Shown here in pieces: positions 14,201 to 35,500 of a DNA stretch of 64,000 nucleotides (position 1 is its first letter; every line of letters starts with the position of its first letter). The position numbers and the translations under genes were made by a program. The notes beneath the pieces are model-generated. The model was not told the DNA's origin. It saw only the letters and a list, made by a program, of their open reading frames with translations, and did not search any database. Source of the DNA: an uncultured Chloroflexia bacterium (GTDB lineage: Bacteria; Chloroflexota; Chloroflexia; QHBQ01; JADMIH01). The stretch is taken from contig CAWCNY010000003.1 in the NCBI GenBank assembly GCA_963797095.1, positions 96,001-160,000 of the forward strand, in the 5' to 3' direction.

Positions 14201-14284
14201 CGAGTAACAAGTAACCAATCACGAAAAGTAACTACAATATACCGCTATTTCACCCTTGTTGGACGTTTGTTAGGGAGGATCAGG

Positions 14285-17200
14285 ATGGACAAGCACAGGA
14301 ACAGCCTCGACCCACGAACAACCCTGGCTCATTCGCTTTTGCTTCTGAAGGGCATCAGGAAGCATATTCGTGTTCGATTACAAAGCCTCCCGCTCCTGTT
14401 CCTGATCTTGTTTCTCTCAGTTACATCAGGATCGCTTGCTCGCACAGCAAGCGTCTCTGCCATGCGTGCGCCTGCTGGTATTATGCACAATATAGCTGGG
14501 GCAAAGACCGTCGAGTTTGCCTGGCTTGATGGCGGGGGCTTGTTTGAAGTGGCCGCGCAGCCCGTTTGCGCCACTTCCAGTTGCACGAACCCCAGCTTCG
14601 GAGCGGCCACCAATTACAATGTCGGAGCCTACCCCGGCTCAATAGCCAAAAGCGATTTCAATCGGGACGGCAAGATGGACCTTGTCGTTGCGAACTGGGG
14701 CTCAGCGAATATTCGAGAGTTAGTTGGTGATGGCAATGGCGGGTTCGCTTTGACCCTCACGATCGTCGTAGATACGGGAGGCAATTTTCTGAATGTGGAC
14801 GATGTTAACAGGGACGGTAATCCCGATGTCCTTATTGCTCTCTCGAACTCCGGACAGGTAGGGGTATTACTTGGCAACGGTACTGGAGGGTTTGGCCTTG
14901 GCACCTATTATGGTGTCGGCTCCGGTCCATCAGCTGTATCATCAGGCGATTTCAACAGGGACGGCAACCCCGACCTGGCCGTTGCGAACTACTCCTCCAA
15001 CAACATTTCTGTGTTGTTGGGCAACGGCTCCGGCGGGTTCAGCACTGCCGTTTATTTTCCGTCAGGGACTAATCCGGACTCGATTACCGTAGGCGACCTG
15101 AACAAAGACGGCAATCTTGACCTCCTCGCCGCCAACTACGGCTCCAACAGTGTATCCGTTTTGTTGGGTAATGGCTCAGGGGGGTTCAGTGCCGCTGTTA
15201 ACTTCGCTGTGGGCTCGTACCCCGTTTCCGTCACGGTCGGTGATTTCAACAAGGATGATAATCCTGACCTCGCTGCTGCCAATGGGGCAGCCAACACCGT
15301 ATCCATATTGTTGGGCAACGGCACGGGTGGTTTTGGCGCTGCCACCGATTTTTCTGTTGGAGTATCCCCAACCTCTGTGTCCATCGACGACTTCAATCGG
15401 GATGGACAAGCGGATCTGGTGGTTGCCAACGGTGGAGTGAATAATGTGTCGGTGCTCCTGGGCGATGGCGCCGGGAGTTTCGGCATTGCTGTTACCTTTA
15501 CGACAGGTTCGGGCCCCAAATCGCTGGTAACGGGCGACTTCAACAGAGACGGTAGCCCGGACCTGGCGGTTGTCGCCAGTACGTCCAACTCCCTTTCCGT
15601 GCTGCTGAACACCTGCAATCTCGTTTGCCCTTCGCCCACATTTGGCGGTCTCACCCCCTATGCAGCCGGGGTGGGCCCGTTTGAGGGAGCCGCAGGTGAC
15701 TTCAATAAGGACGGGATCCTCGACCTGGCGGTGGCCCGCCGGTATGCCAACAGCGTAGCTATACTCCCCGGCAACAGCAGCGGAGGATTCGGCGCGACCA
15801 CCAACTATGCTACAGGCGCGCAGCCACTAGCGGTGTCAACAGGCGATTTCAACAGAGACGGGAATCTTGATCTCGTAACACCTGATTTCGGGTCCAATAC
15901 CGTGTCGGTGTTGCTCGGCAACGGCTCAGGCGGCTTCGGCACGGCCACAGCTTATACGGTTGGGGCCGGTCCGGAAAGCGTGGTAGTGGGCGACTTCAAT
16001 AGAGACGGGAAGCTCGACCTGGCCGTGGCCTGCTCGGTGGACGGTCTCATCTACGTGTTGATAGGCAACGGCAGCGGAGGCTTCACTGCGGCATCGAGCA
16101 ACGGTGTAAGTTCTTTCCCCATCTTTGTGACAACCGGCGACTTCAATAGGGATGGCATCCTGGACTTGGCTACTGCCGCCTACTCAAGCAACTATGTGGC
16201 TGTGTTACTGGGCAACAGCTCCGGCGGCTTCGCAAGCGCCAGTTACTTCGCTGTTGGTACAAACCCCAGGTCTGTGGCGGTGAGCGACCTCAATCTGGAT
16301 GGCGTCCTCGACCTGACCGCAGCGAACTATGGCTCAAGCGATCTATCGGTCCTGCTCGGCAATGGCTCCGGCGGGTTCGGTGCCGCCACTAACTATATAA
16401 CTGGGTCAAATCCCGAGTCGACCGTAGTGGGCGACTTCAACCGCGATGGAGTTCCGGATGCTGCGGTAGCGGCTGTCTACAGCGATCAGGTTATGCTTGG
16501 CAACGGTAGCGGAGGTTTCGGCACTCCTTCAAGCTATGGTTCGGGTGCGGTTGGAGTGCTGGCAGGGGACTTCAACAGGGATGGCGGCCTCGACCTGGCT
16601 TTCAGTAACTACAACACCAATTCTGTAGATGTGCTGCTGAACGCTTGCGGCACCAACATCCCCACGCCCACCCCCACAGGCACTCCCACTAACACGCCCA
16701 CACGCACGAACACGGTGCCACCTACCACCACTCCCACACGCACCAGCACGGCTGCCAACACGCCAAGCCCGACAAATACACCCACCAACACGCCAACCCC
16801 GACGCCAACCCTGACCAATACAGCTTCGGCAACGCCCACGCGCACGCCTACGCGCATGCCGACATCTTTGCCCACCAACACGCCTACCCATACGAGCACG
16901 CCCCCGCCTACGCAGACTCAGGGCGGCCCATCGGCCACGCCCGTGCCGAGCAATACGCCTACCAGCACCTTTACGGCCATACCAACGCACACGCACACAG
17001 CCACACCGACAGGCACGAATACGCCCAGAATTACGCCCACAGTTACGCCCACTAACACACCTACCAGCACACCTCAGCCCACGCAGACTCAGGGCGGTCC
17101 ATCAGCCACTGCCGTACCGAGCAACACGGCCACAACTGTGCCTACCAATACCCCTGCCGGGACAGCTACCGGCACGCCCACCAGTACCCCCACTACCGTG

Positions 17201-17959
17201 CAGGGCACAACTAATACACCTCAGCCATCCGATACTCCTATCGCCACATCTACTTCCTGCCCGATCCAATTCACCGACGTGCCCCAGAATAGTCCGTTCT
17301 ACTCGTATATCAGGTGCATGGTTTGCCGCGGGCTGGTCAATGGCTACTCGTCGGGCTGCGAGAACGGCAACCCATGCTTCCGACCAGGCAATAACGTGAC
17401 GCGTGGTCAATTGGCTAAGATCGTGGCTAACGCTGCAGGCTTCAGCGACCACATCCCCTCCAGCCAGCAGAACTTTGACGACGTGCTCCCCAGCAACGCC
17501 TTCTGGCTCTACATCGAGAGGGTGTATGCCCACCATGTCATCGCCGGCTACGCAGGAGACGGTGTGACGGTCAACCCATGCACAGGACAGGTGGAACAAA
17601 GCGGGCATATATACTTCCGCCCATGCAACAATGCCACCAGAGGGCAGATAGCCAAGATCGACTCCGTGGCTGCCGGCTACTCTGATGTCATCCCTAGTAG
17701 CCAGCAAACCTTCGATGACGTATCCCTCTCCAACCCGTTCTGGCTCTACATTGAGAGGGTGCACCTGCACTCGGTAATCAGCGGCTACACAGGAGACGGT
17801 GTGACGGTCAACCCATGCACAGGACAGGTGGAACAAAGCGGGCATATATACTTCCGCCCATGCAACAACGCCACCAGAGGGCAAACCTCGAAGATAGTTG
17901 CCAACACGTCCCTCCCTAACTGTGAAACACTAGGTGCCATCGAACAGCCGCGTCGATAG
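14285..17959 (+). CDS. FG-GAP/VCBS repeat surface protein (2 x 7 blades) with a Pro/Thr linker and C-terminal SLH domains
   Basis: 14 DFNxDG repeats in two Cys-bounded groups of 7, a long PT-rich stalk, and FTDV/TRGQ SLH motifs; GGGAGG RBS. Confidence 0.9.
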
Positions 17960-18978
17960 AGCTAGCCGGGCGCCCTACTGGACGATACACAAGGGCTAAT
18001 GACTTGGACGACGAAGCCTCTTGAAAGGGGAAGCGTCAGGACTCAGAGCGCACTGTCTCGTCTGACGACGTTTCAGTATCCGAATCGTGACTAAATAGTA
18101 CCCGTTGTGCGCTGTTAGGCTGCCATCAGCAGGTATTGCAGGGCACCAAGGCGCTCCTGAAACAGCCGCCGCTGTTCAGATAGAGGCACCTTCTCTTTTG
18201 CCTTTGTTCGGTATCGGAAGTACTGCCGTTGCTCATCGAACGCTCGGCAGAAACGAGAGGCAGAAGCCAAGTTACCGAATCCTCTAGCCCTCATAAGGCT
18301 TCCTTGGCGGTAGTGTCAGATCTGGGACTGCAATTCGTTCCATCGAAACCGATGACTAATAACCACTGGAGGATGATGGGCTAGAGAGGGAAGTATGTAG
18401 CAACCCAATCTAGACAACTGAATGTTCGATGTGGGGTGAGGAAGAACAACCCGATTCCCCACCGTTGAGGTGAACAACGAAATGCCCATCCCCCACGGTA
18501 GCGAACGGTCATCAATCCGTGAAGCGGGGGTGATAGCGTAGATACTCCAAGCCTCAAAGGGGTATCTCGCCTGGCGGGTGGCATATGGGTAGCTTGGCTT
18601 GTAAGAGCGCTGCACACCGAGAGGTGAGCAGTCGAACGTATGATATATCTGTCGTAACTGACAACAAGCTAAAGAGGCTGGCAAGCTTGGCCCAAAATGG
18701 GCAAGGCTAGAGGCTGGCGATATCTCAGTCGTCCAGCATTCACTCTCCCTAAACCCGGCAGACAGTACGACCCTAAGTGCCACGTAAAACGGACATTCGG
18801 AACGAAGTAACCGCCCCTCACTCTCGTGTACGATCAGTATGATCAGTACGATCACGGTCAACTATGCGAGCAGGTGCCAACCGTATGTGGGGGAGAGGTG
18901 GGATTGCCTGAGAAGCGAATGCCTGGGGTAATGCCCAGGATATGCTGACGCAGGCACGGTACTACGGCAGATAGGGTC

Positions 18979-19830
18979 ATGAGTAGGAGTAGATATGTCA
19001 TGAGCGCGGTCACGGGTCAGGTTATGGGTGCGGCCCAACAGCCAGCGTATGAATGGAAAGACTTGCCATGGAAGCAAATCGAGAGGCATGTCTTCAAGCT
19101 CCAAAAGAGAATCTATCGGGCTTCCGTCCGTGGCGATGTTAGGGCAGTCCACCGGCTACAGAGGTTATTGATGAAATCCTGGTCGGCAAAAGCACTGGCT
19201 GTTCGTAGGGTTACTCAAGACAACCGAGGCAAGAACACAGCCGGAGTGGACGGGGTGAAATCGCTCAACCCAAAACAACGACTACGACTTGTCACGATAC
19301 TGACTTTACCCAAGAGGGCACAACCCACAAGAAGAGTTTGGATACCCAAATCCGCCTCCAAAGAGAACGAAAAACGCCCTCTTGGAATACCAACCATACA
19401 CAATCGAGCAGAACAAGCACTCGCTAAGCTAGCCTTGGAAGGTGAGTGGGAAGCTCGATTTGAACCAAACAGCTACGGTTTTCGACCAGGACGAAGTGCC
19501 CATGATGCGATTGAAGCAATCTTCTTGGGTATTCGCCTCAAGCCAAGATATGTGCTTGATGCCGATATCGCGAAATGTTTTGATCGAATCAACCACACTG
19601 CACTATTGAACAAACTCCAAACCTACCCTCGAATGCGAAGAGCCATCAAAGCATGGCTCAAAGCAGGAGTGATAGAAGGGGAGGAATTGTTCCCGACCGA
19701 GGAAGGAACTCCTCAGGGTGGGGTTGCCTCGCCGCTACTCGCCAATATCGCCTTGCACGGCCTGGAAACATCTATCTGCAAAGCCTTTCCATCGAACCAA
19801 AGACCAATAGTATTAAGGTATGCCGATGAT
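18979..19830 (+). CDS. ltrA: outer group II intron RT/maturase, exon 1 (ends at YADD)
   Basis: WKQIERHVFKLQKRIYRAS, TAGVDG, RPLGIP, YGFRPGRS, PQGG and RYADD; exact start codon uncertain. Confidence 0.9.
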
Positions 19831-22378
19831 GTGCGCCATATCACCAGGTGCTAGATACCTTTCGCAGAAAGGAGGGGTTCGGAAGAATAAACCCCTGGGT
19901 CAATGGCTTACCCGATGGCGAAAGCCAAAAGGAACAATAGCATGCCATTAAAGCAGGAGAGAAATGCCACGTCAGAAGATGCTTATGACCTTGTCCTGCA
20001 AGACCCGCGTAATACGGTGAAAGCCAAACTGCTTGAACTTCAGTCTCTAGCGATGCAAGCGTACATCCCCCGATTACAGCATCTAAGGCGGGGCCATCAC
20101 GATAGGGCGACAAAATCGTCGTCGCTCGAACCTTCCGCGTGATGGGCGGTGAGAAACGATCTCACTCAAAGGGGCAGACGAAGCACCTAAGTTACGCTCG
20201 ATACGTCTAGCATTTAGGGAATATGGGATTGCCCAACGGGCCGAGAGGCCCAGGGTAACGGAGCCTCCGTAGTACTCAGAGGACGGGAAAGCCGTCCACA
20301 TTGACCAGGGTACGTCCACGTGAAACCACGTGAGGATTTCATGTTGAACGTAACCAGGCGGGGAAGGGAGGCAGGTGCTTTGAAACCCAGCAAGAGAGGT
20401 ACTCGAGATGAGAAACGCCGAAACTGTACTGGGGATCATCCAGGATCGCGGCAGGAGAGGACTGCTGCTAGAAGATGTCTATCGACAACTGTTCAACCCG
20501 CAACTGTACCTGCTCGCCTATGGCAAGATTTACCGAAACAAAGGAGCGACGACACCGGGAACGACACCGGAAACTGTGGATGGAATGTCCATGATGAAAA
20601 TCGATGCCATCATCGAAGCCTTACGCTTCGAGAGATACAGATGAACACCGGTGAGGCGTATCTACATCGAGAAAAAGCACTCCAAAGGGAAGCCCCAGAG
20701 GAAGTCTCAAGGAAAAGCAATCTCGAAAAAGAAGCGCCCCCTCGGAATACCCGCATGGTCAGACAAACTGTTGGCGGAGGTAATACGCCTCATCCTTGAA
20801 GCATACTACGAACCGCAATTCAGCCCATCTTCCCACGGTTTTCGCCCTGACCGAGGTTGCCACACAGCGCTACGGGAAATCTACCATAAATGGGTGGGCA
20901 CAAAGTGGTTCGTGGAGGGCGACATTTCCGACTGTTTTGGCTCGCTGGATCACACCATCATGATGTCAATACTCAGGGAAAAGCTCCACGATAACCGCTT
21001 TCTGCGCTTGATTGAAGGTTTGCTCAAGGCCGGATATTTGGAAGGGTGGAGATACAACGCCACGCTCAGTGGTAGTGCACAAGGCTCGGTACTTAGCCCC
21101 ATCCTCGCCAATATCTACCTTGCCAAACTGGATAAGTATGTCGAGACGACGCTCTTGTCAACCTACAACCAAGGGAACCGACGCAAGATCAACCCGGAGT
21201 ATCTCCGGCTACGCGCCAGTGTCACGAGGCTAAAACGGATGGGGAAAAAAGAGCAAGCACACAAGTTGCGTCGTCAGATGCAGCAGCTACCCTCCCTTGA
21301 CCCCAACGACCCAGCCTACAGACGGTTGCGCTACATACGGTATGCAGACGATGTGCTTGTGGGTTTCAGCGGCCCACGTAAGGAAGCTGAAGAAATCAAG
21401 CAACTCCTCAAAGAGTTTTTGGGTGATGAACTCAAGCTGACCCTCTCAGAGGAGAAAACGTTGATCACCCATGCACGGAGCAAAGCTGCACGCTTTCTGG
21501 GTTATGAGGTCGTAGTGCTCAACAACGACCACAAACTGGACCGGCGTGGACATCGGAGCATCAACGGCCAGATCGGGCTGAAAGTACCCTCGGACGTAGT
21601 ACGTGCGAAATCTACTGGCTACCTGCACAACGGCAAACCGATACACCGAACGGAACTTATCCACGACAGCGTGTACAGCATCATGGCACAGTACCAGGCG
21701 GAGTACCGGGGCATTGTGGAGTACTATCGGCTGGCTTACAACCTGCACCAACTCAACCGGCTGAGGTGGGTGATGGAACGGTCGCTAACTCAAACACTGG
21801 CACACAAGCTACGCATCAGCGTGAGCAAAATCTACCACCGTTACCAAACCAACATTCAGACAGAAGCGGGTCCACGTGTTGGCCTGCAAGTGGCGGTTGA
21901 GCGCGGAGAGGGAAAGAAGCCACTGATAGCGAAGTGGGGCGGTATTACTCTCGCACGGAATATGAAAGCAGTCCTCAACGACCAACCTACACGTGTTTGG
22001 GGATCACACTCACACACAGAGCTAGAAAAACGGTTCCTGGCAGACACTTGTGAGCTATGCGGCTCACGTGAAGATGTCGAGGTACACCATATTCGAGCAC
22101 TAAAAGACCTCAAACGAAAGGGACGTGCTGATAGACCTGAATGGGTGAAAGTGATGGCGGCACGCCAACGCAAGACGCTGGTGGTCTGCCGAGCATGTCA
22201 CGATGAAATCCACAGAGGGAAACTAACACAGCATACACTACCACGAGTACAACACGAAGCCGCTAATGGAAATGGAGAAGCACTGGAGAGCCGGGTACTC
22301 CGAAAGGCGTAAGCCCGGTTTGGGGAGGGGCGGACAGAAAAGTATCGGTAACGACAACTCGCTGGCCGCCTACTCTAC
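19831..22378 (+). mobile_element. group II intron, inner (IIA, LtrB/ML-like), inserted after the YADD codons
   Basis: Begins GTGCG at 19831, has domain V GAGAGCCGGGTACTCCGAAAGGCGTAAGCCCGGTT at ~22287 and ends CTACTCTAC at 22378. Removing it restores YADD|FVVMHE. EBS1 and EBS2 pair with the exon. Confidence 0.93.
20408..22312 (+). pseudogene. inner intron RT/maturase/HNH with an in-frame TGA at 20642-20644
   Basis: ORFs 20408..20644 and 20651..22312 share a frame and read ERYR*TPVRRIYI (probably TGG->TGA). RYADD is intact, with C-terminal CELC..HH..CRACH HNH. Confidence 0.85.
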
Positions 22379-23353
22379 TTCGTGGTCATGCACGAGAAAT
22401 TGGAGGTTATTGAGCGATGTCAACAAATCGTGACAGAATGGCTCAAGGGCATGGGGTTGGAACTGAAACCCAGTAAAACCCGTATCACGCACACACTACA
22501 CACCTACCAGGGAAACACCGGGTTCGACTTTCTCGGTTTCTCGGTCCGACAATTTCCAGTGGGCAAGACCCACACAGGAAAGAACGGACAGGGCCGAAAG
22601 CTAGGGTTCAAGACCATCATCAGACCAAGCGAAGAAGCTCAGAAACGACACGCCAAAGCACTTGGTGATATCATCCGGAAGATGCGAGGGATCAGTCAGA
22701 TCGACCTGATAACTCTGCTAAATCCAAAGATACGAGGGTGGTGTAATTATCACTCCACCGTCATATCCGGGAAGGTATTCAGCAAGATGAGTGACGTGCT
22801 GTACCATCAGCTAAGACGCTGGGCACAACGCCGTCACCCCAAGAAATCCAAAAGATGGATTGCCAACTGCTACTGGCACCCAAATGAGGGCAAATGGGAT
22901 TTTGCATGCAAAGAAGGAAGGCTAATCCAACATAGGGAGATACCTATCAGAAGGCATGTGAAAGTACAGGGTGTCAAAAGCCCTTATGACGGAGATTGGG
23001 CCTACTGGGGCCGAAGGCTACAGCGCTACCCTGGATTGCACCCGATGGTAGCACAGCTACTAAAGAGGCAGGAAGGGAAATGCGCCTGGTGTGGATTGCA
23101 ATTGAGAAGTGAAGAAATCATGGAGCGTGACCATGACGTCCCAATCGTACTGGGAGGTGGACATGGTATCACAAACCGTAGACTACTTCACGGGTATTGT
23201 CACGACGCAAAGACAGCTCAGGATGGTTCTTCAACCTCTAGAGTTGTCAGAAGTTCCAAAGTTAGGGACCGTAGGACTGAGGAGCCGGATGAGGCGAACA
23301 GTCTCATGTCCGGTTTTGTAGGCGGGCGGGAGGCAGTGATGCCTCTCGCCTAG
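22379..23353 (+). CDS. ltrA: outer group II intron RT/maturase/HNH, exon 2
   Basis: FVV...GLELKPSKT, GFDFLGF, domain X LNPKIRGWCNYH, and CAWC...DH...LLHGYCH HNH. Confidence 0.9.
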   Translation, partial: FVVMHEKLEVIERCQQIVTEWLKGMGLELKPSKTRITHTLHTYQGNTGFDFLGFSVRQFPVGKTHTGKNGQGRKLGFKTIIRPSEEAQKRHAKALGDIIRKMRGISQIDLITLLNPKIRGWCNYHSTVISGKVFSKMSDVLYHQLRRWAQRRHPKKSKRWIANCYWHPNEGKWDFACKEGRLIQHREIPIRRHVKVQGVKSPYDGDWAYWGRRLQRYPGLHPMVAQLLKRQEGKCAWCGLQLRSEEIMERDHDVPIVLGGGHGITNRRLLHGYCHDAKTAQDGSSTSRVVRSSKVRDRRTEEPDEANSLMSGFVGGREAVMPLA

Positions 23354-23609
23354 CCAGCACACGCAGCCCCCCCTGTGGCTGTTCGGGCCCTTGCAAGTCA
23401 CTGATGAACCGGGCTGTTATGCTGCCTGTCGTGGCTACATAGCTACATAGCGCATCCGTGCGTGGAACCACGAGTAATGTGGGCCCATACCCATAATCCT
23501 AATGAAACTGCAAGTTCGGCGCTTCTCCTGGTGCGATCTGACACCCAACGATTAGAATCAAAGCGTCCTCGTTCCCCTGGCATTCTTGTAAAAGGAGAAG
23601 CACTCCACT

Positions 23610-24821
23610 TTGATTGAGTTTCTCAGGTTCCTCGTCATGCGTGTCGTCCCTGCCTTCCAGCAGGGTCTTGCTAACCGGGTTTGGACCAGGCCGACCAGTA
23701 ATTTTCTTCCTACCGGGGCGGTGCCTGGAGCTATATTGGGCCTGTGCCGCAGTAAGCCGGAACTGATTGTAGAGAATGCCCTGCTTCGCCAGCAACTCAT
23801 AGTCCTGCGCCGTCAGGTCAGCCGACCACATCTAACCAATACCGACCGAGCCCTCCTGGTGCTGCTCGCTGGCAGGCTTCGAAGCTGGAAGAGCGCTCTG
23901 TTTATCATCAAGCCCGATACCCTGCTCCGTTGGCACAGGGCGGGCTTTCGCCTGTTCTGGAAGCGAAAATCCAGGACCAAATCGCGTGAACCGAAGTTGC
24001 CTACGGAGACCATCAAACTGATTAGGCAGATGGCTATCGAGAACCGGCTGTGGGGTGCCGAACGGATCAGGGGAGAGCTGCTCAAGTTGGATATTCGGGT
24101 ATGCAAGCGCACTATCCAGAAGTACATGCATCAGGCACACAGGCCTGGTCCCACAGAACGCAAGGCCAATCAAAACTGGTGTACTTTCGTGCGCAACCAT
24201 GCTCCCCAAGTATGGGCAGTCGACTTCCTACCTGTATACGACCTGTTCTTCCGACCGCTATTCCTTTTCGTCATCATGGAACTCGGGTCACGTCGAGTGG
24301 TGCACTTCGGAGTTACCCGCTCTCCGACAGATGAGTGGGTATCCCAGCAACTTCGGGAGGCAACGCCGTTTGGGGAGGCACCCAGGCTCCTGATCCGAGA
24401 TAACGACAGTAAGTATGCAGAGAAGTTCGCCCGTGTGGCGGAAGCCAGCTGGATAGAGGTGCTGTGCACTCCATACCAAGCGCCCCGGGCCAATGCTGTG
24501 TGCGAAAGGTTCCTGGGCAGCGCGAGACGGGAGTGCCTGGATCACTTGCTGCTCCTTGGGGAGAAGCACCTGCACCGAGTGATCAAGGAATTTGTGCGCT
24601 ACTACAACCGCTCTCGCCCGCATCAAGGGATTGGCCAACAGATCCCGGAAGTGGCACACCAGTCAGCGGCGGCGGTGCCAGCAGCGCCAGCAGTGCTGGC
24701 GGAGCAACAGGAGCAACAGGAGCAACAGTTACAGCAAAGGGCACCTGGTGGAACGGAGGCAAAGATAATCAGGGTGCCGGTACTTGGCGGGTTGCACCAC
24801 GATTACCGAAGGGCAGCATGA
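23610..24821 (+). CDS. integrase-core (rve) DDE transposase of an IS element
   Basis: WGAERIRGEL, WAVDF, LIRDND, NAVCERF, YYNRSRPHQG and LGGLHHDY; element ends not resolved. Confidence 0.88.
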   Translation: MIEFLRFLVMRVVPAFQQGLANRVWTRPTSNFLPTGAVPGAILGLCRSKPELIVENALLRQQLIVLRRQVSRPHLTNTDRALLVLLAGRLRSWKSALFIIKPDTLLRWHRAGFRLFWKRKSRTKSREPKLPTETIKLIRQMAIENRLWGAERIRGELLKLDIRVCKRTIQKYMHQAHRPGPTERKANQNWCTFVRNHAPQVWAVDFLPVYDLFFRPLFLFVIMELGSRRVVHFGVTRSPTDEWVSQQLREATPFGEAPRLLIRDNDSKYAEKFARVAEASWIEVLCTPYQAPRANAVCERFLGSARRECLDHLLLLGEKHLHRVIKEFVRYYNRSRPHQGIGQQIPEVAHQSAAAVPAAPAVLAEQQEQQEQQLQQRAPGGTEAKIIRVPVLGGLHHDYRRAA

Positions 24822-24990: not shown

Positions 24991-27975
24991 CTAGACAGGC
25001 AGCGGTAGGTCTTCTTCCAGCGGCGGTGGCAACTCATCCCACTCCAGCACATAGTCTCCGAACCGCTTGATGTGACTCGTCCAGTACGGGCTCAACAACG
25101 CCAGGTCCTCACGCTTCACCTCGTATCCACTTTCGGCCAACTCATGTACCGCCCTCGTCAAGTCAATCGTGTTTTGCAATATCACTGCATTGGCCAGCAG
25201 ATCGGTGTACTTGACCCGCTTCTCTTGCTCCACCGGGTCAGGTGTGCCGATCACCCCTTCCCCACCAAACGATAGCCACTTCGTGAAGCCGTTGTATGCC
25301 TCCAGCTTGTTCGTTGTCCCGGTGATCTCCTCCCTCAGTTCGGCGTCCGACAAGTACCTCAGCAAGAAGACTGTACGCACTACCCGTCCCAACTCGCGAA
25401 ACGCCTGGTACAGCCGGTTCTTGCGACTGTAGTTGCTCAGCTTGCGTAGCAGCGTCGAGGGCAACACCTTGCCTGCCTGGATCGAAATCGTCACCTGCAT
25501 CAAGTCCTGCCAGTGCGTCTCGATCAATCCCCAGTCGATTGTATCACTGAACAGCGCATCGATGTGCTGGTAGGTCGTCTTCCTGTCTGGGCGATAGAAT
25601 ACCAGGTCCTTCCAGTTGCGGATACGAGGCATCAGCTTTATGCCCAGCAGGTAGGCCATCCCGAATACCGGCGCCGATTGCCCTTGCGTGTCGGCGTGCA
25701 GTGTATCGGGCTGGATGTTGGACGTGTTGGTCTTCAGAATGTCCAGGATGTAGACTGCTTCCCACACGCCGCACACGATGAAGTGGCTGAACAACGCGAT
25801 GTACATGTCCGAGAGGTGGTGGTAAGCAATACCGCCGTAGCCCCCATATCGGATGTGGTATTCGCTCATCAGGCTCTCTTCGTACAGGGCGAACTGCGTG
25901 CCGTCAGCCGCTGCTACCTTCTCCTTGCCCCACAGCCGTGGCAGATGGCGATCGCTGTAGCTGTTGATGACATCGCGTATGGCGGCATCCAACTTCTTGG
26001 TCGTGATATGCCGGAAGTTCACCAGCCACAGTTGGTGCGGGCTGATGCGGCCACGAGCATGCCGCGCCATCTGCACAGGTCCCAGGTTGCAGCCATAGGT
26101 AAAAGCGGCGACAACGTAGCGTTCGCGGGGGTTGTCGATCTTGGGGTCGGAACCCGATAGCGGCCCGAAGTGCCGGCTCCAGTTCGTCCAATACTCCACG
26201 TTGCGCAATACGTCGATCAGGTTGCGTTGGGGCACCCGTTCCTGCAATGCGCTAACAAGCGGCTCCAGCGTCGGTGAGAGTGGCTTTGGCGCGGGTCGCT
26301 TCAGCACCGGCTCGCCTTGCGGACTAATCGTCAACTGCTTGTTCTCGGGGAAGGCGGCGTCCACCTGCTGAGTTGTAGTGCTCAGCCACTCCTTGAGGTC
26401 GGCCACGAACTTCCCCGGCGTGGCGGCAAACCCCAACTCTTGACAGTAGGCCTCCAACTGCCCCTCGCACTCTTCCCAGGGCAGCAGGTGAGTGCGGTAG
26501 TCGGCATACTGCTCCGAACCGGCCACGCTAATATCGCCTGTCTTGAGTTCATAGGCCAGGTAGACGAATACGCAGACCTCTAACTGCCGGCGTACCATAC
26601 GCGGCACTCGTCGACGCCGGTCGGTGATGAGCCGTTGCCATAAATCACTGGCGAAACTGAGATCCAACTCACCACGCACCCACTCGCTGCGCTTGTGCTG
26701 GTTGTCCAGTACGAACTGCACGGCCCCAAGCAGGCTCCCATCCTGGGTAGTGGAACTGAGTTCGAGGGTACGCAGGATACTGAACAGCACTCGACGATGC
26801 GAGCGGAAGAACCGCCACAAGAGTGGCAGGTGGTTGTTGCCGTTGTAGGAGATGACATTGGCGCATTCCTCCTGCAACATCTGCTGGCCGCCTCGCGCCC
26901 ATACCAGTGCCCGCACTTGTTGACCGAGCACAGCGTCCTCCGTGGTCTCGCCCACCGTTTCGAGGATCTCGCTCAGAGTGTCGGCCACGTTGATGGTAGT
27001 GGCGCGATAAGCCTCACGCAACAACTCCAACTCCACCTGAGCGGCGCGCTGGATAGAGCTGACGCGCTTGATCAACATGGTGACCAGTTCATCACGGGTG
27101 GTGACGCGCGCTTGCTGGACCAGGCACAACAGCAGGGTGTAGCGTTTGGCAGGCTCGACGTCGTTCATCGTCGCCGCGTCGAGCACCATAGCTTCGGCAG
27201 CGAAGTGCTTGAGCTTGGCCGGCGGCAGATCAACCAGTAGTTGGTCAAGTCGGTCAAACCGATCAGCATCGCCCAGGGACAGCAGCGAAAGCAGCCAGTT
27301 GAGCTTGGTCTGCCATTCCTTGAGATGCTTCAGCGTGGCGCTAGGGGGTGGGTCCTTGATAGCCTGGAAGGGGGTGCGGCGCGGGCCTAACTTGGTATCG
27401 AGTAGCGCCTGCAGTGCTGCTCGCTCCTGAGAAGTGAGCAGCGCTGTAACCTGGGCAAACAGGCTCAAGTTGACCTGGCTGCGTACATGAGCGACCAGAC
27501 GATCCAGAGTGGTGAAGCCCGGCAACTCAAACCGCAGGCGGACGAGTTCTTCGATGGCAACGTTAATGAGGTCGGCGGGGTTGTCCATGACCAGGGCAGA
27601 TTGGCGGACGATAGCAGCGATAGAGCGGCGGGCGCTCTCATCGAAGGGCTGGACCTGCAGGTAATCACGGACGGCCTGGTGGTGACGGTAAAGGGTACGG
27701 TCTTGCCCGTAGTCCGGTCGCAATTCATCATCGAGTTGCAGGTATGAGCGGACGTGCTCGACTACTGAAGTTGGTATGTCGGCGATGTTGGGGAAGTAGC
27801 CGAGACGTTGGAAGCTCTTGAGCCAGAGGAGCAGATGCAGGCGATGGACATCTTCACGGGCGTTGTCGTGCACCCAGGCAAGTTCGTTGGCAGTAGGCGA
27901 GTAGATCTCTTCGAGTTCGCGGCGGGTGGGATTGCGTTTGAAGCGCGGGTAAGCAGTGCGCTCGATAGCGGTCAT
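24991..27975 (-). CDS. tnpA: Tn3-family transposase
   Basis: 994 aa; MTAIERTAYPRF start, and AADGT, HADTQG and NKLE DDE motifs. Confidence 0.95.
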   Translation of the reverse strand: MTAIERTAYPRFKRNPTRRELEEIYSPTANELAWVHDNAREDVHRLHLLLWLKSFQRLGYFPNIADIPTSVVEHVRSYLQLDDELRPDYGQDRTLYRHHQAVRDYLQVQPFDESARRSIAAIVRQSALVMDNPADLINVAIEELVRLRFELPGFTTLDRLVAHVRSQVNLSLFAQVTALLTSQERAALQALLDTKLGPRRTPFQAIKDPPPSATLKHLKEWQTKLNWLLSLLSLGDADRFDRLDQLLVDLPPAKLKHFAAEAMVLDAATMNDVEPAKRYTLLLCLVQQARVTTRDELVTMLIKRVSSIQRAAQVELELLREAYRATTINVADTLSEILETVGETTEDAVLGQQVRALVWARGGQQMLQEECANVISYNGNNHLPLLWRFFRSHRRVLFSILRTLELSSTTQDGSLLGAVQFVLDNQHKRSEWVRGELDLSFASDLWQRLITDRRRRVPRMVRRQLEVCVFVYLAYELKTGDISVAGSEQYADYRTHLLPWEECEGQLEAYCQELGFAATPGKFVADLKEWLSTTTQQVDAAFPENKQLTISPQGEPVLKRPAPKPLSPTLEPLVSALQERVPQRNLIDVLRNVEYWTNWSRHFGPLSGSDPKIDNPRERYVVAAFTYGCNLGPVQMARHARGRISPHQLWLVNFRHITTKKLDAAIRDVINSYSDRHLPRLWGKEKVAAADGTQFALYEESLMSEYHIRYGGYGGIAYHHLSDMYIALFSHFIVCGVWEAVYILDILKTNTSNIQPDTLHADTQGQSAPVFGMAYLLGIKLMPRIRNWKDLVFYRPDRKTTYQHIDALFSDTIDWGLIETHWQDLMQVTISIQAGKVLPSTLLRKLSNYSRKNRLYQAFRELGRVVRTVFLLRYLSDAELREEITGTTNKLEAYNGFTKWLSFGGEGVIGTPDPVEQEKRVKYTDLLANAVILQNTIDLTRAVHELAESGYEVKREDLALLSPYWTSHIKRFGDYVLEWDELPPPLEEDLPLPV

Positions 27976-32528: not shown

Positions 32529-35500
32529 CTAAGGGCCGCCGGAGGCGATGGTGACTATCTTGGCTACCTGTCCCCTGGTGGCGTTGGCGGCGGGAAGGAA
32601 GTAGGGCCTGTTCCACTGGTCGCAAGGCTCGTCAGCGCTGCCGCACGTGTAGCCGTTGATCATGCCCGCTCCTGAGATGGCCTCGATGTAGGGGGCGAAA
32701 GTGTGGTCGGCAGGCACGTCGGCGAAAGTGGGGCGGTCGGGTGTGAGGAGCGCGTAGCCCTGTGACAGAGCGATCACCTTGGCAAGCTGCCCTCGCGTGA
32801 TGATGTTGCCGGGACGGAAGTAGGGCCTGCTGTTGGCATCGCAAGGCTCGGAGGGCGCGCCACAGGCATAGCCGCTGATGACGTTGTAGGCGGCAGCGGT
32901 CTCCGCGTACAGGTAGAAGGCCGAATCGCGGGGGACATCAGCGAACGTGGCCTCGTCGTGCTTGGGGTTGAGGAGCGCCCAAGCGGAGGCGTTCACCACC
33001 ATCTTAAGGAGTTGGGCACGAGTTACATTGCGCCCTGGGCGGAAGTATGTGCCGGGGCAAGGCTCACCGTCTGTGCCACATTCGTAGCCGGATATGTAGC
33101 CGCGCTCGTCCATCCAGCTTACGTATGGTGCAAAGGGGTCGCCCGCATACACGTCGTTGAAAGCCGCCTGTATGGGTGTAGAGGTAAGCGAGGGCGGAGG
33201 CACGGCAGCGGTGGCGGTCCCTTGCCAGAACCCACCTATCGGGCATGACGGCCCGGCGTAGCTGATCCAGAGACCCCAGGCGTGTAGGGTGCCGGTATCC
33301 CAGGGGCCGCCGTCCTGCACCTCAAGGGTCCAGGTGCCGTTGGACATCTTGCCCACGAACACGTTAAGAGAGCCTTCTTCAGGCAGATATGCACCCTGGC
33401 CCGGCGGGCAGGTCGTGCCAAGCACGGGCGCACCGGAGCGCGCCAGGCTAAAGCCGGTGTTTCCGGGAGTCCATACCTCACTGCCACATACGTGGGTGAA
33501 AAGGGCTGTGCGGGTGCCGTCAGGCCCGGTCAAATAGGCCGACAGGTCGCTGGCGTAGGTGTGTTCGAGGGTGAGGCTCACCACGCGAATGTCGGCTATG
33601 GTGCCTGCATCGCCTACTGTGAGGGTGGAAGTGGTCACCCCCTGGTCGGGTACGGCCTTGGGCACGTCGGCGCTGCTATAGGTCAGCGCGCAAACAGGAG
33701 TTGCCGGTGGCGTGCCCGTAATCCCAACGGACGGTGTAGCGGTGGCAGTTCGGGCCAGTGTCGCCGTGCGAGTGGGTGTACGGGTAACGGTTGGCGTTCG
33801 CGTCAGGGTGGGGGTGCGGCTAGGCGTGCGCGTGCGGGTAGGAGTTTGGGATGGCGCGCCGGTTGGAGTGCGCGTGGGTGTTCGAGAGGGCGTGGAGGAA
33901 TAAGTCGCCGTGGATGCGGGCGGGTGAGTGGGAGTGAAAGTGGAAGAGGGCGGAGGTGTGTTGGTGCGGGTAGCCGAGGGTGGCGGTGATGCAGGGGTAA
34001 GGGTGGCGGTAGGGGTGCCTCCGGTGCAGGGATTCGCGTAGGTGATACGCAGGACCCAGGCGTGCAGAGTGCCGGTGTCGTACTGGCCTCCGTCCTGTAC
34101 CTCTAGCGTCCAGGTGCCGGCGGCCTGCCCACCGGCGAGGGGCGTGAGCGAGCCTTCTTCGGGCAGATAAGTGCCCTGGTTGGGCGGGCAGACGGTGCCC
34201 ATTACCTGCGAAGCCGATTGAGAGATTGCGAAGCCGGTGTTTCCGGTCGTCCATGCGCCGCTGCCGCATACATGGGTGAAAAGGGCTGTGCGAACGCCCT
34301 GCGGGTTGGTCAGGTAGACAAGGAGGTCGCTGGCGTATGTGTGGTCGATGGTGAGGCCGGTCACTTCCACGGAAGCCACAGTGCCGGGCGCGTTTACAGT
34401 GAGAGTGGAGGTGGCGCTGCCCTGGTCGGGGATCGCTTTCGGTACATCGAGGCTTGTGTAGAGCACCGAGCAGGCGGAGCCAGGCGTGGGGGTGGACGTT
34501 GCAGCCATAGTGGGTTGCGGGGTAGAGGTGCGGGTGCGCGTCGGGCTGGACGCTACAGGGGTCCATGTGCGCGTGGGAGATGTGGCAGGGAGGCCCGTGG
34601 CCGTGGGAACCTGCGGCATGGGGGTACGCGTGGGCCGTGGCGGGGTCTTGTAAAAGGTCTGGCCGGTGCAGGGGCGGGGTGTGCCGTCCCATGCGCCGGT
34701 GAAGCGGTCGATAATGTTAGCCATCAGCTGCTGGATGCGCGGGTCGGCGGCCTGCGACTGGTAGGCCGGTTGGAACACCTCGTTGGAGTAGGTGTGGTCC
34801 ATCAGGCCCCACGAGAAGAAGATGCTGCCTGCGGCAAAGACCTGCGCGCCGCTGCTTGCCGTGTAGATGGTGGAGTCATGTGGAAGAGGCATCCCGTGTG
34901 GGTCGGAGAGGGTGCTGTGAGCCAGCCACTGGATGCCTGGCGGCGTGTAAGGGTCGGCTGTGAGACCGTCCCACTCCTCGCCGATGATGTTGTTCACCTG
35001 ATCGCCCGGCTGGAGTCCTGTGCAGTCGAAGTACCAGGAGGAGGCGGGAGCGACCGCCACCCACGGGTAGTTGTATAGCTCCTCGTCGTAATAGGATTGG
35101 TAGTTGGAGCCGATCAGAGAGTTTTCGGGCCTGCCAAGATCGCGGAAGGTGATCGTTTTGGGTGTGGGGGCGGGTGCAGGGTCCAGCACCTCATCTTTGT
35201 AGCCGACCATTACGCGGTTGGGTCCATTGGCGGAGGCTTCGAGGCGGATGTTCCAGAACGACTCGTTGGCGGAGGCGAAGATCATGTTTACGCCGGAGTT
35301 GAGCACGTGCTCGACGTTGGTGCGCTCGTCCCAGGTCCAGTACTCGTCGTGGCCCATCACCATGAAGGCCGAGTGGCCCAGCAGGATGTTGGGGTTGGTG
35401 GCGCGGTCAACGTCGCTGATGTAGGTCACGTCGAAGCCGGATGCTTCGAGCCAGCGCACCATCTCGTGGTCGTGCGAGAAGAAACCGCCGGTGCCCGCAC

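Follow-up and report, generated by a model that had tools for sequence, protein, structure and literature searches.

Insertions of an LtrB-like group II intron lineage behind the YADD codons of other group II intron reverse transcriptases

A 64,000-nt stretch of DNA from an uncultured Chloroflexia bacterium (contig CAWCNY010000003.1, positions 96,001 to 160,000, assembly GCA_963797095.1; the whole stretch is hereafter called the window) carries at 18.3-23.4 kb a twintron, in which an inner group II intron is inserted into the reverse transcriptase (RT)/maturase/HNH gene of an outer one. We consider it highly probable that the inner intron is a member of a monophyletic LtrB-like lineage which homes to the YADD-coding DNA of other group II intron RTs. 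Direct support comes from the boundaries of the intron, the location of its pairing segments in loops, their covariation with the target, the clade structure of the encoded proteins, the diversity of the interrupted hosts, recent independent insertions, and the co-copying of inner and outer introns as twintrons.

The twintron and its inner intron

The outer reading frame is cut exactly behind ...L-R-Y-A-D-D (TAT GCC GAT GAT, 19819-19830) and resumes with F-V-V-M-H at 22379, the two junctions reading ...AGG TAT GCC GAT GAT/GTGCGCC (19830/19831) and ...CTAC/TTC GTG (22378/22379). In silico deletion of 19831-22378 rejoins the outer RT, with the cut falling between positions 155 and 157 of the Pfam RVT_1 profile; taking out the inner intron restores the open reading frame (ORF) of the outer one, as befits a twintron. 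The parts concerned are as follows:

19831..22378 (+): inner group II intron (IIA, LtrB-like), 5' GTGCGCC ... CTAC 3'
20408..22312 (+): intron-encoded protein (IEP) of the inner intron (RT, maturase X, AI2M-like HNH), 634 codons, interrupted by an in-frame stop codon (TGA) at 20642-20644
22286..22378 (+): domains V-VI of the inner intron, RF00029 match of 55.8 bits (gathering score 40)
18979..19830 (+): 5' part of the outer IEP, with RVT_N (E 1.4e-34) and RVT_1 profile positions 1-155, ending ...LRYADD
22379..23353 (+): 3' part of the outer IEP, the end of RVT_1 followed by GIIM and HNH, starting with FVVMH at profile position 157

The termini of the inner intron, GTGCG...CTAC, fit the group II rule (5' GUGYG, 3' AY), and its domain I-III structure is supported by an RNAalifold consensus of 16 relatives, in which 75 of the 140 pairs show compensatory changes. 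A search of 17900-20500 against Rfam at a permissive threshold returned no domain I-IV family for either the inner or the outer intron. The inner IEP matches LtrA of the Lactococcus Ll.LtrB intron (PDB 5g2x, the best PDB match; E 2.3e-115, residues 23-603) over its full length and contains the Pfam domains RVT_1, Intron_maturas2 and an AI2M-like HNH, and by these PDB and Pfam matches the element is classified as an LtrB-like intron of the IIA, mitochondrial-like (ML) class.

Pairing of the inner intron with the YADD codons

According to a review (PMC3898094), IIA introns use two exon-binding sites, EBS1 and EBS2, together with delta, the base 5' of EBS1, which pairs with the first base of the 3' exon (delta'). 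Since the inner IEP is an LtrA homologue, the delta-delta' rule is the applicable one, and in the test made of this, which covered delta, the base beside EBS1 does pair with the first 3'-exon base, as expected of this subgroup in contrast to a separate EBS3. The pairing elements, with the complementary intron-binding sites (IBS) of the exon numbered backwards from the insertion point, are:

20059..20063 (+): EBS2, GCGUA, in a predicted loop; pairs with UAUGC, with one G.U
20105..20127 (+): EBS1 hairpin, consisting of stem strand GGGCGAC (20105-20111), the 9-nt loop AAAATCGTC (20112-20120) and GTCGCTC (20121-20127)
20114 (+): delta, A20114, pairs with +1 U; A20113 is perhaps a second delta base
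20115..20120 (+): EBS1, AUCGUC; pairs with GAUGAU, with one G.U
19819..19823 (+): IBS2, UAUGC (-12 to -8), the Tyr codon and the first two Ala bases; -11 covaries with the EBS2 base in relatives
19824 (+): the -7 base, unpaired, third position of the Ala codon
19825..19830 (+): IBS1, GAUGAU (-6 to -1), both Asp codons
22379..22380 (+): delta' (+1 U, +2 U), from the Phe codon TTC
21341..21353 (+): the inner IEP's own YADD codons, TAT GCA GAC GAT, plus the G of Val GTG; unoccupied

The initial annotation, made from the sequence alone, had placed EBS1 and delta in the hairpin at 20105-20127, with AUCGUC facing GAUGAU and the preceding A facing the +1 U, and it was correct in all these respects. 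In the consensus fold, delta and EBS1 lie in the 9-nt loop of a 7-bp hairpin with compensatory changes at six of its seven stem pairs, and GCGUA lies in a loop upstream of it; the folding of domain I that had been called for does put both EBS elements in loops supported by covariation. The hexameric EBS2 proposed at the same time, GCGUAC pairing with GUAUGC, stands for its first five nucleotides (GCGUA with UAUGC), but C20064 is predicted to lie in a stem, its pairing with -13 being confined to 8 of 28 relatives, and for these reasons EBS2 is modelled as effectively 5 nt long, covering -12 to -8.

Relatives and their insertion sites

Relatives were collected from one reference-genome scan (5 loci), one metagenome scan (80 loci) and the source genome (G000, contigs C1-C6 in what follows), giving 93 loci in total (L-numbers), in which intron 5' ends were found with profiles of domains I-III and V-VI. 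The 57 intron 5' ends so located come down to 48 different insertions for which 13 nt or more of the 5' exon is present, and 30 of these lie directly behind xADD codons of RT genes (25 YADD, three FADD, one YCDD and one TADD; 28 in all after merging two pairs with a common 5' exon). Relatives in this position are referred to below as hunters. In 19 cases the ORF of the host 5' exon stops at position 155/205 of the RVT_1 profile, and the hosts themselves are varied: some have RVT_N, GIIM or HNH, others lack RVT_N, and others still are ML-like group II RTs.

A quick IQ-TREE phylogeny of 39 IEPs sets all 22 xADD rows apart from the others by a single branch (SH-aLRT 99), and the xADD label needs one change on the tree, a value as low being reached in none of 500 shuffles. 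Duplicates (L002, L003, L005-L007, L014, L021, L078) and loci whose ORFs all fell short of 450 aa (including L054, L062 and L087) were left out of the tree. The window intron has the attributes of the lineage, namely a position behind the xADD codons of an RT gene, an EBS1 of the form (G/A)UCGUC and an EBS2 of the form GCG(U/A)A. The proposal of a specialist 'RT-hunting' intron is thus borne out by the 30 of 48 insertions behind xADD, by the grouping of hunters on one side of one branch and by the diversity of the group II RTs that they occupy. The other 18 of the 48 insertions are elsewhere, and mostly belong to introns whose IEPs are 56-64% identical to that of the window.

Among these 18, the non-RT hosts with Pfam support are TnpB (L077/L078, interrupted at ...VNPAYTS), an rve integrase core (L013, at ...SDQGS), a ResIII/DEAD helicase (L012, at ...LTGTIFNG), an IS3-like transposase (L005) and a radical-SAM/4Fe-4S gene (L061). 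Some more distant relatives appear to have entered domain V of other group II introns: for L011 (L011:1928-1971) this is supported by a D5-D6 profile match, and for L063, L071 and L075 the 5' exons look like domain V when judged by eye.

Covariation with the target and tolerance of synonymous codons

Covariation was scored over the 30 distinct xADD sites, with positions -10 and -13 scored in the 28 rows that have a 6-nt EBS2 column. EBS2 was read from alignment columns, and L058, L061, L063 and L075, non-hunters falsely matched by the EBS1 pattern, were disregarded. By target position, the counts are:

-2, -3, -5, -6: Watson-Crick pairs without variation
-4: U 15, C 15, with G as the only intron base
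-10: C 14, U 14, likewise with G as the only intron base
-1 against EBS1 position 1: G:C 18, G:U 5, A:U 5, A:C 2
-7: A 4, C 13, G 10, T 3; unpaired

As had been predicted, the EBS Gs pair with both synonymous codons, U and C being about equally frequent at -4 and at -10, and -7, at the Ala wobble position, varies, all four bases occurring there. EBS2, moreover, tracks the residue before ADD: GCGUA goes with Tyr (UAY), GCGAA or GCAGA with Phe (UUY), and GCGGU with Thr (ACC), and the YADD sites L015 and L026, which carry a Phe-type EBS2, have one mismatch each. Where both exons are seen, delta is paired with +1 in 17 of 21 sites, in the combinations A-U, C-G, G-C, U-A, G.U and U.G. The loop base beside delta is an A throughout and has a U opposite it at +2 in 18 of the 21, neither side varying informatively, which is consistent with a second delta base possibly pairing with +2. 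When the EBS2 column was applied to 14 relatives whose targets are unrelated, 54 of 70 positions paired; shuffles average 30, and none of 2000 reaches 54.

On these counts, TAY-GCN-GAY-GAY is what the ancestral guide reads, and the A at EBS1 position 1 of the window copy is a derived and narrower variant. The intron RNA would read the top strand of the target in four parts: EBS2 (GCGUA) would pair with UAY-GC, the Ala wobble base at -7 would be skipped, EBS1 (GUCGUC in most members, AUCGUC in the window) would pair with GAY-GAY, and delta (A, possibly AA) would pair with one or two bases at the start of the following codon, which is usually UUY (Phe). With G opposite all synonymous Y positions and no pairing at -7, silent changes in the Y-A-D-(D) codons would leave the target intact. 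The protein motif itself could not change without killing the host RT, and the target site would be free of cost to the cell, present in every RT gene, and carried along whenever the host intron moves. Such wobble tolerance may have been selected rather than merely retained.

One may picture an escape-proof hyperparasite that reads all RT-motif codons and shields its own RT by replacing Phe behind YADD with Trp, Val, Met or Ile, within a wider ML family that has time and again been retargeted to conserved motifs of mobile-element enzymes (TnpB, DDE integrases, and domain V of other introns). Host RT genes could then not escape by silent mutation, because of the G.U wobble at each Y and the skipped four-fold Ala position. 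We regard this extended version as a tentative possibility.

The YADD codons of the intron's own RT

The own site of the inner RT is as first described: GTATGC-A-GACGAT (21340-21352) matches EBS2 and EBS1 fully and is followed at 21353 by a G, which leaves delta mismatched. The initial annotation had proposed that this +1 G, from the Val codon GTG, breaks the delta-delta' pairing and so lets the intron spare itself. Although the mismatch is confined to +1 and delta does covary with +1 across the lineage, we find it rather doubtful that this single mismatch is the operative self-immunity.

To begin with, +1 G is not the rule of the lineage. Across 29 hunter IEP rows (duplicates included, one false pattern match removed) the residue behind the own YADD is Trp in 24 (TGG, +1 T), Val in three (GTG), Met in one and Ile in one, and the T of the 24 Trp sites pairs with a delta A. 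What does hold throughout is the absence of Phe (TTY), which is found behind YADD in none of the 29 hunters, as against 13 of 21 host sites, where no other residue is as common, and 29 of the 46 remaining IEP rows, a mixture of non-hunters with hunters whose domain I is off the contig. None of the 29 rows has an interrupted own YADD, while ML-type hosts outside the clade (L053, L055 and L087) are interrupted, and in the source genome only YADD/FADD-Phe RT genes are occupied, all of which agrees with some form of self-sparing.

Four occupied sites, moreover, have a mismatch at +1, in L010 (A.C), L022 (C.U), L036 (U.U) and L047 (A.A), and L042 occupies a TG site, with the same +1 and +2 bases as in Trp. 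In L010, +1 is paired at the own site and unpaired at the occupied one, and overall pairing at the own site is equal or superior. According to the same review (PMC3898094), no single recognition contact of the Ll.LtrB RT is absolutely required, and the stringency of EBS and delta pairing may vary by position. The shift from Phe to Trp was perhaps a single event on the stem of the clade, and self-insertions, which destroy the IEP, have perhaps been purged by selection; in addition, 3' exons on short metagenome contigs are perhaps chimeric. The weaker form of the proposal, an avoidance of Phe behind the own YADD, is suggestive as a pattern in the alignments, and the +1 G of the window copy would at most be an example of it.

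Repeated insertion, shared descent and copying of whole twintrons

Inner introns that are 92-99.8% identical over their first 500 nt are found in host sequence that is only 56-68% identical over the 150 nt upstream, as in the pairs L042/L043 (99.8 vs 62.0), L016/L035 (98.2 vs 63.9), L048/L055 and L036/L038. Near-identical introns in such divergent hosts must therefore represent repeated recent insertions into different RT genes, and the lineage may be active at present.

The opposite view would have no ongoing targeting at all: a single ancient twintron, with its inner and outer introns inherited or copied together, would owe its common site to descent. Copying of the whole unit does indeed occur in the source genome. 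L002 (C1:492589-495760) is a 5'-truncated copy of the twintron, 99.94% identical to window 20190-23361 and embedded in unrelated flanks; it starts at nt 360 of the inner intron, stops at the 3' end of the outer one, and looks like a retrotransposed unspliced twintron with incomplete cDNA. A second family, L003 (C2:~823305-825811) and L004 (C3:569575-572081), consists of two copies of a 69%-identical hunter behind the R-F-A-D-D of another RT, its IEP having an open frame of 628 codons. On the upstream side of the inner intron the two copies agree for 535 nt, where the C3 copy is truncated inside the outer RT, and on the downstream side they agree for about 958 nt. Their downstream flanks resemble paralogous genes. 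A 5' truncation of this kind would be the expected trace of incomplete reverse transcription, and the window copy has been duplicated passively along with its twintron. Even so, descent from one ancient twintron is very improbable as an account of the lineage, in view of inner introns up to 99.8% identical in host genes as divergent as those above, of the different domain compositions of the hosts (RVT_N present or absent, or ML-like), and of EBS2 elements retuned to FADD and TADD hosts. In four DNA sequencing runs we found no contig joining the exons across the inner intron and no empty site; one contig, perhaps from the source sample, bridges the 5' junction.

That the pairing between intron segments and exon is due to chance, with the true EBS elements elsewhere, can practically be dismissed, given the covariation at -1, -11 and +1, the position of both elements in loops with covarying stems, and an EBS2 column that tracks 14 unrelated targets better than any of 2000 shuffles.

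Occupied and unoccupied sites, and the state of the window copy

The source genome (6.0 Mb in 8 contigs, 58% G+C) contains three related elements: the L002 twintron copy, the L003/L004 family and a 730-nt ORF-less derivative. Both of its distinct YADD/FADD-Phe RT genes are occupied, and five RT-like genes with Leu, Trp or Glu behind YADD are unoccupied, their contexts having been judged by eye. The ORF-less derivative (L005-L007; C6:~301500-302230) lies behind ...LDWHSR in a transposase-like gene with HTH_21 upstream; its EBS2 column pairs with the exon, and its EBS1 is not readable. At C2:711868, an uninterrupted RT gene reads ...RSSRAVVRYADD-E-VVFCES, with Glu (GAA) instead of the usual Phe at the delta' position; it may be compared with the hosts of the hunters L009 and L036, which read ...RSSR(A/G)(V/L)VRYADD/F-VV...

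Several observations weigh against a lineage that homes to RT motifs, or against the window intron as an active member of it. At C1:30565, an ML-type RT gene with YADD-Trp matches EBS2, EBS1 and delta of the window intron and yet is unoccupied; RNA pairing alone may not predict occupancy, or, alternatively, the window intron may be dead. L054 and L062, which are close to the window intron (75-76% identity across the N-terminal ~230 aa), differ from it in both target and EBS1, and may be retargeted offshoots of hunters. Some metagenome contigs are possibly chimeric across the repeated intron, which weakens the delta' counts: L020/L021 and L022 have the same 5' exon with a different 3' exon, and L053 combines an ML-like 5' exon with a GIIM-like 3' exon. 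The junction pattern was matched in only 2 of 401 sampled genomes of the phylum (G000 and G210). The invariant G at wobble-facing positions could reflect retained ancestry instead of selection.

As for the window copy itself, its IEP has an in-frame TGA at codon 79 (20642-20644), at a position where three aligned relatives have Trp, and the C1 copy is identical over this stretch, so the nonsense codon is common to both. An intact IEP, as an autonomous mobile retroelement would have, is lacking here; the copy is probably not autonomous and at most putatively mobile, and splicing of the inner intron is itself a prediction from sequence.

In the L054 (L054:602) and L062 (L062:1124) loci the exons end ...RDALA and ...SYALA, respectively, in ORFs without a Pfam match. 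G210 was rejected as a hunter: its site, ...PADD, is not RT-like and lacks the hunter EBS1, and the match was put down to coincidence. A genetic code with TGA as Trp was likewise rejected for the organism in view of the 58% G+C of its genome.

The outer intron and its neighbourhood

Two further features belong to the outer intron:

23280..23361 (+): domains V-VI and approximate 3' end of the outer intron; RF00029 match at 23280-23358, 46.3 bits, with the identity to the truncated C1 copy stopping at 23361
18328..18978 (+): presumed 5' ribozyme part of the outer intron, from alignment with two relatives on C1; start uncertain

Near 18328 the outer intron reads CTGCAAT, where the two aligned relatives read GTGCGAC; the outer intron may be decaying too, and its exact 5' end is uncertain. 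Both relatives (C1:~430300-431250 and C1:~32700-33650) lie in IS3-like transposase genes, directly behind the conserved motif ...CYDNAVME, and the outer intron of the window aligns with them, yet its upstream flank differs.

The region around the twintron is rich in mobile elements. A short repeat at 18111-18285 has at least 10 further copies, 70-82% identical, on C1, C3, C4 and C5, and its minus strand resembles, by eye, the C-terminal end of a transposase-like ORF. Flanking genes encode a 1230-aa FG-GAP/SLH repeat protein (14267-17959), an rve_3 integrase core (23610-24821) and a Tn3-family transposase on the minus strand (24991-27975).

Comparison with known systems

If the reading proposed here is true, the lineage would be an RNA-guided mobile element with a guide tuned to a protein motif and not to one DNA sequence. 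This would bear on how selfish elements find 'safe' sites that are unable to mutate away, on the parasitism of introns by introns (hyperparasitism and the spread of twintrons), and on the design of retargetable introns against gene families, and possible self-immunity could be tested in an element that bears its target within its own gene. Our search of the literature, which covered the accessible parts of the papers, found neither YADD-site homing nor wobble-tolerant EBS elements described, and an earlier description is possible.

The window intron resembles Ll.LtrB/LtrA of Lactococcus lactis (IIA, ML) in an IEP homologous over its full length and in the layout of the recognition elements, in which the base at -7 is skipped between the EBS2 pairing and the 6-bp EBS1 pairing, and delta, adjoining EBS1 on its 5' side, pairs with the start of the 3' exon; in Ll.LtrB the pairings are numbered -12 to -8 and -6 to -1. 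Ll.LtrB homes to one gene, a relaxase, whereas hunters home to the catalytic motif of many divergent RT genes, with a G facing each synonymous position. Homing endonuclease genes and inteins at active-site codons are likewise parasites in unchangeable sequence that tolerate variation at third codon positions, but recognition is by protein in their case and by RNA base pairing in the case of hunters.

For introns within introns, the nested group II introns of Methanosarcina acetivorans, reviewed in PMC4424553, are a known comparison. In Thermosynechococcus elongatus, TeI3 interrupts TeI4 at a point that separates the first ATG of the host ORF from the second (PMC2882425). These twintrons differ from the one described here in that the inner intron is IIB, has no ORF and does not lie in a catalytic motif, and wobble-tolerant reading is not described in the accessible part of that paper. 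The IIB1 introns specialised to start or stop codons offer another parallel, since they too, according to PMC12584367, form a monophyletic lineage defined by a functional class of target and not by one gene; they belong to another structural class, have another target and carry a large 5' insertion, and the target of the hunters is another selfish element. Twintrons and homing into other introns were known already; what appears to be new here is an LtrB-like lineage whose unusual target is defined at the level of a motif.

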